Below, one piece after another: positions 17,536 to 59,910 of a stretch of 64,000 nucleotides of DNA (its first letter is position 1; the number at the start of each line of letters is the position of its first letter). A program made the translations under genes and the position numbers. The notes under the pieces were generated by a model. That model worked only from the letters and a program-made list of their open reading frames with translations. It did no database searches and was not told the origin of the DNA. The stretch is from Octopus sinensis (Eukaryota): NCBI RefSeq assembly GCF_006345805.1, contig NC_043006.1:16120001-16184000 (forward strand), in the 5' to 3' direction.

Positions 17536-17927
17536 CTAGCAGTATCGCCCGGCGTTGCTCGGGTTTGTAAGGGAAATAACTATATAAGCATTTTTAGAGA
17601 GTTATAGCCCAAAAATAGCAAAAAATACATTAAAAATGGAAAAAAAATTATGGTAAATTTTTTTAATCGTTGATTCATCGTAGACATTTTTAGAGAGTTA
17701 CTTCCCTTATATAATAGCGAAAAAATGCATTAAAAGGGAAAAAATGATGGTATTTTTTTTTTAAATCGTAGATTCATCGTAGACGCGCGCTAATACCCAG
17801 AAGGGCTCGATATGAATCACGACTATAAGATACCCGGTTTTGGTTAAACTGCACCGCAAAATGTGGCAGTAGTTAGGAATCTAAATCGTAGGAGACAGAC
17901 ACACATCTTCTCTTCTATATATAAAGA
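17536..17927 (-). mobile_element. Non-autonomous Helitron (392 bp)
   Basis: Minus strand starts A|TCTTTATATATAG and ends with the hairpin cccgagcaacgccggg plus CTAG|T. It is inserted between A and T without a TSD, carries an internal ~95-bp direct duplication, and has a second copy at 59515-59910. Confidence 0.92.
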
Positions 17928-20495: not shown

Positions 20496-20527
20496 TGTGT
20501 GAATGTGTGTGTGCGTATACATGTATG

Positions 20528-20762
20528 AAGGCGGCGAGCTGGCAGAAACGTTATCACGGCGGGCGAAATGCTTAGCGGTATTTCGTCTGCCGTTACGTTG
20601 TGAGTTCAAATTCCGCCGAGGTCGACTTTGCCTTTCATCCTTTCGGGGTCGATAAATTAAGTACCAGTTACGAACTGGGGTCGATGTAATCGACTTAATA
20701 CCTATGTCTGTCCTTGTTTGTTCCCTCTGTGTTTAGCCCCTTGTGGGTAATAAAGAAATAGG
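20528..20762 (+). mobile_element. SINE family C, full-length monomer
   Basis: Head ggcggcgagctggcagaaacgttatcacggc..gagttcaaattcc, body gtcgactttgcctttcatcctttcggggtcgataaa, tail gtgtttagccccttgtgggtaataaagaaata. Confidence 0.92.
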
Positions 20763-21164
20763 TATACATGTATGACTGAAAATGTGCAAAATAGTCCATT
20801 GAGAAACTGCGCTGTGTTTCGAACGAGAGATATGAGGTGTCTTTAAAGATTTTTTTGGAACAGAAATATCAGTAAGAATCTTCTCTTAAATCTATTAAGT
20901 CTTCTTTCTAGAACTTTTCTAAATTTTCTTTTATTTCTTGAAAATCTTGCTACCACTAATTTCACCAAACTGTTCGCGTACCACACCAATATGCACTGGC
21001 GCATTTGACGGTTAAACATTCAGCACTTGATGGGGTTCGTTTGGTTTATCAAAAATAGCAACAAAATCTCCCTCAAATTACACCACCTGTCTTTTTCACA
21101 ATGTATGGAGCTGTGTGTGTGTAATGTTCTAGTTGATGGTGGGTGGGTGGGTGTTCCTTGTATT

Positions 21165-22072: not shown

Positions 22073-22393
22073 TGTGTGTGTGTGTATGCGCATCTGAGTC
22101 TTTCTGGTTGTATTTTTTACTCTTCGCTGGGCAAGCGATTTTTCGTTTAAGACCCCGGAACTTATGCGGTTCGGCAAAAGAACCGATAGAATATATATAT
22201 ATCAAACTTAAAATAAGTGCTGAGGGCCGACTTTTTCGACAAACCCTAAGGGTGTGTTCAAGAATGGGCACAGTCCAATAACTGAAACAATTGTAATCGT
22301 GAAATAGTTGTAAGATTGGTGATAAAAGTGCATTAGGAACAACTGTGTAGTTTTAGGCAAAACTTTACTAGACATAGTATTTATTACAGAACT

Positions 22394-22775
22394 CTTTGTT
22401 TCAGTCATTTGACTGCGGCCATGCTGGAGCACCGCCTTTAGTCGAGTAAATCGACCCCAGGACTTATTCTTTGTTTGCTTAGTACTTATTCTATTGGTCT
22501 CTTTTTTTGAACCACTAAGTTATGGGGACGCAAACACACCAGCATCGGTTGTCAAGCGATGTTGGGGGGGACAAAAACACACACACATATATATATATAC
22601 ATACATATATACGACGTGCTTCTTTCAGTTTCCGTCTACCAAATCCACTCGCAAGGCTTTAATCGGCCCGAGGCTATAATAGAAGACACTTTCCCAAGGT
22701 GACACGCAGTGGGACTCAACCCGAAACCATGTGGTTGGTAAGCAAGCTAATTACCACACAGTCACTCCAGCGCCT
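22394..22775 (-). mobile_element. SINE family A
   Basis: Homologous to the other copies. Confidence 0.9.
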
Positions 22776-22925
22776 AACGAAGATCAGATATTTTCTCTGC
22801 CTGTGGAAAATGAGGTCGATCGTGTGTATTAGTAAAGACTGATAATCTAAGAAGATTGATCATTTTTCCCAGGTAAATGCCTAAGGAAAGTTTGGCGTAG
22901 TACCATTCCATATCAGGTAACTTAC

Positions 22926-23003
22926 CTTTTGCCTCATATTATTTGGAGACAAAGTAATTGGAAGAGGTGGCACAGAGGTTTTCTGATTTACTTGAGCGGA
23001 GAG
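22926..23003 (-). CDS. Candidate internal exon, 78 nt, phase 0-0 (LSAQVNQKTSVPPLPITLSPNNMRQK)
   Basis: Acceptor ggttttccattttgtag, donor AAG|gtaagt, open frame, unique sequence. Confidence 0.45.
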
Positions 23004-23039
23004 CTACAAAATGGAAAACCACAAAGAAGTCATCCCAGA

Positions 23040-23405
23040 TATTTGCTCCGACTCTTTAAATTTCGAGTTCAAATCTCGCCGAGGTGAACCTTGCTTTCCA
23101 TCCTTTCGGGGCTAATAAAATAATGGTCAATGTAATAAAATAACCAGCTCACATAAAAATATTGCTGGCCTTGTGCCACAATTGTGAAACAGTAAAGCTA
23201 AGAGCTGGCAAACTTGTTAGAGCGTTGGAAAAAAAATTTAATTTGCAGTAATTGTTCCGGTTCTTTATGTTCTGATTTCAAATCCCGCCAAGGTAAATTT
23301 TTGCCTTTCATCCTTCGTTGATCAAAAAAATAAAATACCAGGGTCGAAGGCGTCAGATAATCCCCACCTCACAAAATTAAGGCCTTATGCGTAAATTAGA
23401 AATTG
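23040..23405 (+). mobile_element. Two degenerate SINE family C copies with the alternative tail
   Basis: gagttcaaatctcgccgagg..cctttcgggg body and ggccttgtgcc-type tail. Confidence 0.65.
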
Positions 23406-23477
23406 TATGTAGTAGTAGTAGTAGTAGTAGTAGTAGAGGAGGGCTGATAGTGGCGGTCGCAGTGGTAGTAGAGGTAA

Positions 23478-24416
23478 AGGCGGCGGGCTGGCAGAAACGT
23501 TAGGACGCCGGGCGAAACGCTAAGCGGTTTTTCGTCTGCGTTACGTTCTGAGTTCAAATTCCGCCGAGATCGACTATGCCTTTCATCCTTTCAGGGTCAA
23601 TTAAATAATCGACTTACTCCGTTTGTCTGTCCTTGTTTGTCCTCTCTGTGTTTAGCCCCTTGTGGGTAGTAAAGAAATAGGTATTTCGTCTGCCGCTACG
23701 TTCTGAGTTCAAATTCTGCCGAGGTCGACTTTGCCTTTCATCCTTTCGGGGTCGATTAAATAAGTACCAGTTACGCACTGGGGTCGATATAATCGACTTA
23801 ATCTGTTTGTCTGTCCTTGTTTGTCCCTTCTGTGTTTAGCCCCTTGTGGGTAGTAAAGAAATAGGTATTTCGTCTGCCGCTACGTTCTGAGTTCAAATTC
23901 TGCCGAGGTCGACTTTGCCTTTCATCCTTTCGGGGTCGATTAAATAAGTACCAGTTACGCACTGGGGTCGATATAATCGACTTAATCTGTTTGTCTGTCC
24001 TTGTTTGTCCCTTCTGTGTTTAGCCCCTTGTGGTTAGTAAAGAAATAGGTATTTCGTCTGCCGCTACGTTCTGAGTTCAAATTCTGCCGAGGTCGACTTT
24101 GCCTTTCATCCTTTCGGGGTCGATTAAATAAGTACCAGTTACGCACTGGGGTCGATATAATCGACTTAATCTGTTTGTCTGTCCTTGTTTGTCCCTTCTG
24201 TGTTTAGCCCCTTGTGGGTAGTAAAGAAATAGGTATTTCGTCTGCCGCTACGTTCTGAGTTCAAATTCTGCCGAGGTCGACTTTGCCTTTCATCCTTTCG
24301 GGGTCGATTAAATAAGTACCAGTTACGCACTGGGGTCGATATAATCGATTTAATCTGTTTGTCTGTCCTTGTTTGTCCCTTCTGTGTTTAGCCCCTTGTC
24401 GGTAGTAAAGAAATAG

Positions 24417-24417
<1 letters not shown>
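23478..24417 (+). repeat. SINE family C tandem multimer: head unit plus four 184-bp head-less units, flanked by (TAG)n
   Basis: Units start with gtatttcgtctg at 23681, 23865, 24049 and 24233 and are near-identical. Confidence 0.95.
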
Positions 24418-24468
<51 letters not shown>

Positions 24469-25217
24469 AAGCAACAGCAGAAACTGTCGTAATGTTTGAT
24501 GTAATTTACTGTTGCTTTCGTGGCTCGCCTGCTTGTTTACTTTTCCGGGGGTTTTTTTTTTAATTCTTTCAATTTAGTAATAAATAATGCAGTGTTTGAA
24601 AATGCCAAAAATCAAACATTCTTTTTAATTAAATGTCTATTCCTGGAAAATTCATCTACGGATAGATTAAAATCATTCGTAATAATAATTTCTTATATAT
24701 TTCTTTTTTATATATCCTTCATTATTTTCCATCATTTCATTTCCAAACTTCTTTTTTTTTTTGTTTTATTCATTATTGATTATCTTATACCTCTGATATA
24801 TTTATTTTTTAATAAATTTACATACTATAACCATAAAAAGAATCAAATTATAGTTCTTATTTTATATATATATATATATATTAAAAGGTAAATATTTTCT
24901 ATGTCTCACTGCTTATAAATTATTGTTTTATATAACTATTTATGCTTATAGAAAACCAACATAAAGTTAGTCATTTTGATGAAACTGTTTCTATCATTTT
25001 TTTTTTCAATAAAATGTTTGTGGAAATGTTAGAAGAGAATTGCTTTCCATATCAGCAAATTTAAGTTTCGAACGAGGACTGTAACTATATGAAATCATTT
25101 TCAGTATGAAGTAGGAAATTCCGACTAACAATAAAGCTCCAGTTTAGGATTCGGATGGCTATAAGATAACAGAAGTATATATAGTTAGGTAGAGATATAT
25201 TACTAGAGATATATGAT

Positions 25218-25602
25218 ATGGAAGCACTCCGTCGGTTACGACGATGAGGGTTCCGGTTGATCCAGATCAATGGAACAGCCTGCTCGTGAAATTAACGTGT
25301 AAGTGGCTGAGCACTCCACAGACACGTGCACCCTTAACGTAGTTCTCGGGGATATTCAGCGTGACACAGAGAGTGACAAGGCCGGCCCCTTGAAATACAG
25401 GTACAACAGAAACAGGAAGTAAGAGTGAGAGAAAGTTGTGGTGAAAGAGTACAGCAGGGATCACCACCATCCCCTGCCGGAGCCTCGTGGAGCTTTAGGT
25501 GTTTTCGCTCAATAAACACTCACAACGCCCGGTCTGGGAATCGAAACCGCGATCCTATGACCGCGAGTCTGCTGCCCTAACCACTGGGCCATTGCGCCTC
25601 CA
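25218..25602 (-). mobile_element. SINE family B, full length
   Basis: Near-identical to 15722-16105. Confidence 0.9.
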
Positions 25603-25740
25603 TTGATATATGATATATGATATACATGGTTTGATAAATAATTATGTTTAAGCAGAATATACTCTACTTATATTGTTCTTCTTGTTCATACGCTCCAATA
25701 TGTGTATGTAAACAGTGATGATTGTCAAGGGAATACTTAC

Positions 25741-25775
25741 CAATCTACATCCAGGGATACGAGTTCGCATCTTCT
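25741..25775 (-). CDS. Candidate 35-nt exon
   Basis: Minus strand catcttgtctgcag|AGAAGATGCGAACTCGTATCCCTGGATGTAGATTG|gtaagta. The phase 1-0 reading (KMRTRIPGCRL) is compatible with the exon at 22926-23003. Confidence 0.35.
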
Positions 25776-26002
25776 CTGCAGACAAGATGCGTACAACTCG
25801 ATATTAAGTAAATGATACGACGTGTATCATGCAAAATTATCCATCAGCAACACTGGGGGAAAATAAGCGAGGATTTCGATGGTTCGCAGAGCTATTGCTT
25901 TGGCCTTAACTTTTCCTATCATCCTTTCGGGATCGATAAAATAAAGTACCAGTCAAATACTGATATCAAATTAATCGAATTCTTTTTCCGGTAAAATTTA
26001 TA

Positions 26003-26472
26003 AGCGCAGACGTGGCTGCGTGGTAAGGACCAAAGTCTTTTGGGTGGATATTGTAGATGTACACTAAAAGAAGCGCGTCGTATATACATATATATGTGTG
26101 TGTGTTCTTGTTTCTTTGCGTTTATCCCTACTATTGCTTGACAACCGGTACTGGTTTGTTTACGTCGCCGTATTCCTGCGATTCGGCAAACGAGACGGAT
26201 GGAATAAGTATTAGGTTTTAAAAAATAAGTATAAAAGTTAATGTGTTCGAACTAAACCGTGCAAGGCCGTACTCCATCCTGGCCGATGGATAATTTGACA
26301 ACCGGTACTGGTTTGTTTACGTCGCCGTAATCCAGCGATTCGGCAAAAGAGACGGATGGAATAAGTATTAGGTTTTAAAAAATAAGTATAAAAGTTAATG
26401 TGTTCGAACTAAACCGTGCAAGGCCGTACTCCATCCAGGCCGAAGTCCCATGACTGAAACAAGTAAAAGATA
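26003..26472 (+). mobile_element. Old SINE family A copy with an internal 157-bp tandem duplication
   Basis: ttgacaaccggtactggtttgtttacgtcgccgt occurs at 26138 and again at 26295. Confidence 0.8.
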
Positions 26473-26697
26473 AAAGGTTTTGATGTATGCTTGCAATGAA
26501 ATACTAAAATAAAGTGTGAGGCATAGAATTTGTAAAGCGTTAATAGTTTTATGTATGCATGTCATTATAAGATTTTGCACGAGTTCAGTTGCATATTATT
26601 GCTCAGGATTGCAATGTATAAGTGAAAGTATGATATTGGTTGAGTGCATAAATGTACATCTACGAATTTGTGTTTGTATAATATTTGTACATTTATT

Positions 26698-59514: not shown

Positions 59515-59910
59515 CTAGCAGTATCGCCCGGCGTTGCTCGGGTTTGTAAGGGAAATAACTATATAAGCATTTTAGAGAGTTACTTCCCTTATATAATAGC
59601 AAAAAAATGCATTAAAAATGGAAAAAAAATTACGGTAATTTTTTTTTTAAATCGTTGACTCATCGTAGACATTTTTAGAGAGTTACTTCCCTAACATAAT
59701 AGCGAAAAAATGCATTAAAAGGGAAAAAATTATGGTAATTTTTTTTTTAAATCGTAGACTCATCGTAGACGCGTGCTAATACCCAGAAGGGCTCGATATG
59801 AATCAGGACTATACCCGGTTTTGGTTAAACTGCACCGCAAAATGTGGGAGTAGTTAGGAATCTAAATCGTAGGAGACAGACACCACACAACTTCAGTTTT
59901 ATATATATAT
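59515..59910 (-). mobile_element. Non-autonomous Helitron, second copy
   Basis: Near-identical to 17536-17927, with hairpin and CTAG at 59515. Confidence 0.9.

Follow-up and report, generated by a model that had tools for sequence, protein, structure and literature searches.

How does a short interspersed element come to stand in tandem, without its head, and with the same junction between one unit and the next? The question is raised by an array in a 64,000-nucleotide stretch of an Octopus sinensis contig (NC_043006.1, positions 16,120,001 to 16,184,000; hereafter the window). At 23479-24416 a head-bearing SINE unit is followed by four 184-bp units, and the array is flanked on both sides by (GTA)n, a repeat that prevents the exact TSD from being fixed. 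The initial annotation described this arrangement correctly: units 2-5 are 98.4-100% identical, with unit 3 as the reference, and the head with unit 1 matches the family consensus at 83%. It also held that independent recurrence of one fixed breakpoint requires a dedicated mechanism, and in this we judge it right. The junction is present in 24,240 exact copies across the 2.72-Gb genome, where the reversed control has none. We propose that the 184-bp units are probably head-less copies of a tRNA-type SINE that arose by self-targeted insertion at GGTA together with local duplication.

Table. Features of the window that bear on the tandem SINE units
Positions	Strand	Feature	Basis
20515..20775	+	Family A monomer (20530-20761) with a perfect 14-bp TSD starting GTAT	
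23409..23436	+	(GTA)9 microsatellite, forming the upstream side of the target region that contains GGTA	sequence
23479..23680	+	Family A head and unit 1, with a deletion of about 30 bp; A-box-like and B-box-like motifs (labels presumed); degenerate hairpin at 23510-23538	
23681..23864	+	Unit 2, consensus positions 49-232, joined at the GGTA/TTTCG site (cut at the slash)	
23865..24048	+	Unit 3	
24049..24232	+	Unit 4	
24233..24416	+	Unit 5; three private C-to-T changes (85, 172, 196) common to units 2-5	
24417..24468	+	(GTA)17 microsatellite, continuing the tail as G/GTAG (tail end at the slash)	
26700..27550	+	Chain of an A unit, an A/B mosaic unit joined at position 48, a family B copy joined at position 15, and another B	
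32504..33770	-	5'-truncated LINE piece in (ATCT)n, last 42 nt like the A tail; candidate relative of the partner LINE	sequence
47328..47742	-	A-A dimer in a single 18-bp TSD (1 mismatch); 5' halves with common variants, 3' halves differ	
48475..48975	+	Chain opening with a diverged head (1-14) and a deleted A unit, then joined at position 48 to a further A unit and at position 15 to the body of an old SINE	
49317..49786	-	A-A dimer (49339-49765) in a perfect 20-bp TSD	

The units belong to a family of 232 bp, here called family A, which is short, high-copy, non-coding and flanked by TSDs with a median of about 16 bp. ARAGORN and Rfam found no tRNA in the SINE sequence; its head carries motifs that we take to be A-box-like and B-box-like by the pol III consensus, and the element presumably resembles octopus OK/OR SINEs or Meta-domain SINEs. 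Family B is an older sister SINE, identical to family A over positions 1-164 save at five sites and bearing a different tail. A 25-mer from the head has 19,035 exact matches genome-wide and a 24-mer from the tail 54,934, with no control matches. The junction at position 48 is dominant, as had been claimed, but it is not the sole one, since a second junction, at position 15, occurs 1,907 times genome-wide. The relative depth of the A tail and the shared head, summed over contigs on locus L053, is about 0.12 in a more distant organism, E, and 0.7-0.76 in organism B, a weak hint that family A expanded after the split from organism E.

Multi-unit chains are common in DNA that was not picked for them. 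In 864 kb of such DNA (the window and 80 further stretches, 20 of these adjoining the window), runs of A tails comprise 49 single units, nine A-A, six A-B, three A-A-A and one five-unit run, the array of the window, so that 19 of the 68 are multi-unit. Position-48 joins account for 25 of the 87 A tails in this DNA, above the 20% in one target class that serves as a criterion for a Tx1-mobilised target-specific SINE. In a sample of 312 distinct A tails, which is enriched for junctions, re-entry is at 49 in 180, at 16 in 14 and elsewhere in 16, and the remaining 102 run into other DNA. Most loci of the analysis were chosen by exact patterns on contig C1. Within the window, the four further junctions that were initially listed as the same (26937/8, 47510/1, 48631/2 and 49520/1) do fall at the same position, but are letter-exact at 48631/2 only; 26937/8 has an extra AAATAG, and 47510/1 and 49520/1 have substitutions. 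The window holds other tandems too: a 157-bp repeat in two copies, 97% identical, lies within another repeat at 26138-26443, and related two-copy tandems of 99-100 bp at 17589-17784 and 59570-59770 are probably one dispersed repeat family. Elsewhere, the head forms tandem arrays by itself, with a period of about 65-67 bp (positions 1-63 plus AA) and up to seven or more copies (L114-L122, L130 and L133; C7:15322785, C18:40399009 and C3430:1377-2073 in the genome).

Insertions into unique DNA indicate what the element targets. The main tail variant of family A, T219, inserts at GGT(A) sites: the TSD copy on the upstream side, DNA that was there before the insertion, starts with GGTA at 16 and with GGT at 22 of 42 sites (a count that leaves out loci picked for the antisense site), against a GGTA background of 0.25%. 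For the C219 tail type, the upstream copy starts with AGAA at 5 of 12 sites. Within the head, GGTA stands at position 48 and AGAA at position 15, and the tail allele predicts the join site, with T219 tails at 48 in 210 cases and at 15 in two, and C219 tails at 48 in five and at 15 in 16. Because two tail alleles map to two sites of one head, these data suggest that where a LINE enzyme inserts can be decided in part by a passenger RNA that codes for nothing.

Some insertions into the SINE itself leave visible products. The pattern of a self-insertion (the site, 0-14 bases and a new head) has 110 exact matches genome-wide. Among 24 such loci read by eye, six have the old head, a duplication, a full new copy and a position-48 chain, ten have an A tail upstream, and for at least three an RNA-to-RNA jump is the better reading. 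L045, a locus not chosen for visible products, also has a duplication of 20 bp, with letters private to it. The antisense GGTAC site within the SINE has 352 insertions; of 20 such loci, 10 show a TSD and an uninterrupted host, and eight were left unparsed. Use of the sense site exceeds that of the antisense site 35-70-fold, as measured with an antisense pattern that covers one of two alleles, and since a four-base motif cannot explain this excess, we infer a role for homology. Where bases past the tail would be RNA-derived, 7 of 11 left-right mismatches favour continuation, a weak trace. It counts against self-insertion that visible products are few next to junctions (110 and 24,240 exact matches, with patterns of unequal stringency).

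Chains that mix the two families have a polarity and an age structure. An A tail leads into a B-type start in 3,238 exact matches, and the reverse, a B tail into position 48, in two; an A unit is joined at 48 of B for 11 of 30 B tails by eye and for 15 of 71 by a strict regular expression. The terminal B is the more diverged partner (0.092 vs 0.052; B higher in 34 and A in nine of 45 chains), a difference replicated 16 to 2 in 20 new chains and amounting to about twice the divergence of the adjacent A unit (44 vs 6 pairs). Terminal B units are near B monomers in divergence (0.086-0.091 vs 0.098-0.100, with the monomer class narrowed to leave out older families) and have no common master haplotype, 0.3% of pairs being less than 4% apart, while the A units of these chains are as young as A monomers. 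The outer duplications of A-B chains are B-aged: TSD mismatch is 79/773 (47/57 chains), or 10.2%, compared with 44/739 (45/62), or 6.0%, for A monomers (p=0.0025) and 53/392 (23/26), or 13.5%, for B monomers (p=0.20). The TSD threshold is passed by 7-15% of shuffled pairs, and the mismatch of B-type TSDs may be too high, since these run a few bases into the tail.

The heads of these chains tell a different story from their outer duplications. In seamless A-B chains, head divergence is 0.092, nearer to A (0.065) than to B (0.138), its excess over the chain's own body is not significant (p=0.13), and 34 of 45 heads carry A-type bases at 61/63. With heads that are mostly new, either overwriting of the resident head has to be usual or the chain has to have formed at the RNA level. 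Locus by locus, the correlation between head divergence and B age fell from 0.38 to 0.14 and did not replicate, and that between TSD and B age, at first 0.45, came to -0.15 when 17 new loci were taken (0.13 on pooling); we use neither as support. It also counts against self-insertion that the two units of A-A pairs differ little in age (0.037 vs 0.045; non-CpG p=0.12). When empty-site alleles were sought at window positions 22200-27700 and at L053 in contigs of four runs each, the result was a repeat pile-up, and none of the contigs listed bridges a chain.

In the course of events that we favour, insertion occurs at GGT(A) sites in unique DNA and also at GGTATTTCG (position 48) of older SINE copies, which for a minority of events is seen directly in products that read as old head, 13-25-bp duplication, full new copy and old body. 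In most events the cDNA, matching the old head, would instead anneal there and leave no visible duplication, giving a product that reads head-unit-unit and whose head would often then be overwritten by new sequence. The large site excess would come from homology, the 3' end of the RNA running past the tail into GUAUUUC, and each new junction could serve again as a target. Near-identical runs such as units 2-5 would then likely come from slippage or unequal exchange that inherits the junction. Seamless 5' joins, with duplications in a minority, have a precedent in R2 (PMC3774820), though overwriting does not appear in the passages on these joins. A bolder extension is possible, though we hold it with some doubt: the SINE RNA may have gained its 3' end by read-through from an earlier self-insertion, and this end may guide the borrowed LINE enzyme to the element's own-head site, in a homing loop that is programmed by RNA and reinforces itself. 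Such a loop would overwrite the heads of resident copies, would have invaded a fifth to a third of older family B, and would start satellite-like arrays at loci numbering tens of thousands.

Growth of the arrays fits duplication at the DNA level. A fixed breakpoint had been taken to argue against unequal crossing-over, an argument that fails for expansion: duplications of an existing dimer inherit its junction, so that arrays expand with one junction throughout, and long arrays carry the signatures of such duplication. Distances between adjacent A-A units are bimodal, and 45 of 127 adjacent pairs have at least two rare alleles in common, compared with 1.5% of random pairs. This sharing rises with array length; pairs in two-unit chains are mostly unrelated, with at least two such alleles in 7 of 42 and fewer in the other 35. 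Hybrid middle units mix their neighbours, with breakpoints inside the unit, at L073 and L197, and variants alternate in the long arrays L178, L025 and L203, all of which fits slippage or unequal exchange. Tandem partial-SINE units with a longer terminal unit, which is how SINE-derived satellites are defined, reach four or more units in the window array and at L025, L178, L203, L207 and L209. In the window array, units 2-5 likely arose by local DNA duplication. Their three-change haplotype, with two of the changes at CpG, has 14 genome matches, four of which are the array itself; the ten others differ by 4-12 additional mismatches, so that none stands out as the source. Within the array it is unit 1 that has suffered most damage, though the self-insertion model makes it the younger, which counts against that model; either of the first two insertions may have been the earlier.

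Formation at the RNA level is the core of an alternative that we consider unlikely, if still live: in a homology-guided template switch within one reverse transcription, the enzyme would pause at the head hairpin and jump to the 3' end of another or the same SINE RNA ending in GUAUUUCGUC, and the whole chain would insert once. This agrees with the mostly new heads of A-B chains, with the lying of whole chains within one TSD, with a strong hairpin at positions 30-60 (13-bp stem, -16.5 kcal/mol, z -3.2), with a mild cluster of family A 5' truncations at 65-69 (6 of 38 starts beyond position 20) and with the occurrence of end-to-end jumps onto fragments ending at 61-68. It is at odds with outer TSDs that are older in A-B chains than in equally young A monomers and with terminal units that are old, unclustered and drawn from B or older families, and that SINE DNA in the genome is a target is shown by the preference for GGTA and by the insertions at the antisense site. 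A purely structure-guided jump, as initially suggested, is insufficient, since B has the same head yet hardly ever joins by its tail at 48; what survives of that suggestion is the version guided by homology. Of the hairpins invoked at the re-entry point, the one in the head is real, but the one that the tail was said to complete at the junction is weak, with 5 bp and a z of -1.4 (20 of 200 shuffles equally good; wider context z +0.2). As a cause of the joins we rejected the latter, which is no better than shuffles, given also that B-tail-to-48 joins number only two.

Copying from multimers is a quite unlikely account of the whole, and probably a minor contributor. Multimeric loci would be transcribed through and would reinsert as whole multimers from few masters, which the lack of a T4 (TTTT) run in the family A consensus would permit and to which the uniformity of some young arrays inside one TSD (L210, L246) and the differences of subfamily alleles by position would correspond. 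The positional differences follow equally from the coupling of tail and site, and the terminal B units, old, unclustered and twice as diverged as their partners, speak against the multimeric master copy that was one of the original proposals. That one or few ancient dimers spread and unequal crossing-over did all the rest is highly improbable: the DNA-level duplication signatures of long arrays speak for it, but it cannot yield chains of mixed family whose old terminal units are private, nor the visible products with a TSD, nor two sites that each go with one allele. We give hardly any credence to the remaining proposal, a 184-nt circular RNA copied rolling-circle style as in retrozymes. The unit size lies within the retrozyme range of 170-400 nt (PMC7229834) and long arrays are near-identical, but the circularised unit has no CUGANGA hammerhead core on either strand and Rfam gave no matches to E 10. 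Moreover, 146 of 168 chains begin with a head that the circle lacks and three start at the junction, the two units of a dimer are mostly unrelated to each other, other families form the ends of chains, with thousands of junctions leading into B-type sequence, and higher-order alternation does not fit a single circle.

The 5' ends of the element have peculiarities of their own. The truncations at 65-69 (L105, L250, L257, L263, L268 and L062) lie just below the head hairpin. At L112, L126 and L134, a full copy is directly preceded by a fused SINE fragment that ends at 61-68, and downstream there is no junction to match; these are better read as RNA-to-RNA jumps of the reverse transcriptase at the RNA 5' end than as insertions.

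The closest known systems, each similar in part, are SINEU/Tx1-Mar, the arrays of the blood clam, the satellites of squamates and the 5' joins of R2. SINEU-3/Tx1-Mar of crocodilians, as described in PMC4494074, likewise has a preferred site in an abundant repeat and tandem copies by sequential insertion; its target is a Mariner element and its copies sandwich a TSD, whereas the octopus target is the SINE's own head and the joins are mostly seamless and head-less. For R2 with 28S-homologous RNA 5' ends, annealing of cDNA to the target was proposed, with uniform 5' junctions and 13-28-nt duplications in a minority (PMC3774820), similar to what we see; R2, however, is autonomous and targets rDNA, and its homology comes from ribozyme cleavage, whereas here it exists because element and target are of the same family. 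The TSD1-(SINE)n-TSD1 arrays of the blood clam (PMC11481361) have, like ours, a first unit with a head, later units cut at one head position and one outer TSD, but they involve about 3% of SINEs and reach 15 units, and unequal recombination between TSDs was suggested for them, as against the higher share of multi-unit A runs, mixed families and evidence of targeted insertion in the octopus. SINE-derived satellites of squamates (PMC10702118) also have tandem partial units with one longer terminal unit and homogeneity that rises with length; their short loci are variable, their long arrays subtelomeric and their origin left between recombination and same-locus insertion, whereas in the octopus one junction dominates even dimers and the loci lie scattered. 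Metazoan non-LTR retrozymes (PMC7229834) are small tandem repeats of similar unit size; the octopus units differ in having no hammerhead and in having a 5' tRNA-type head, a LINE-like tail and TSDs.

In the literature searched we found no description of SINE self-targeting in octopus, and a search by term of a 2026 annotation of octopus repeats gave nothing on SINEs in nested or tandem order. Self-insertion gives a concrete and testable path by which an interspersed SINE could turn into tandem arrays like those of a satellite; PMC10702118 calls this link poorly evidenced. Nested chains also distort copy counts and age estimates, as units of one chain differ two-fold in age.

The enzyme would be borrowed from a LINE. 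The last 42 nt of family A are 79-84% identical to the 3' end of an RT-encoding element, and L216, a sister copy of the LINE piece at 32504-33770, matches RVT_1 (E 1.8e-20). A search by pattern for the partner LINE returned four short copies only. Non-SINE elements that share the tail occur at position 15 and in (ATCT)n, with none at position 48 among the loci examined; those with an A-like tail joined at SINE position 15 are at L274 and L309. The elements at L309 and L274 (minus strand, upstream of the SINE) exceed 1.1-1.4 kb, their 5' ends lying outside the stretches covered, and have an ORF1-like frame, with a weak zinc-knuckle match (E 0.026). Besides the piece in the table, 5'-truncated LINE copies in (ATCT)n with the last 42 nt in common with SINE A lie in the window at 36732-37000 and 51393-51800 (minus strand) and at L216 and L381-L383.
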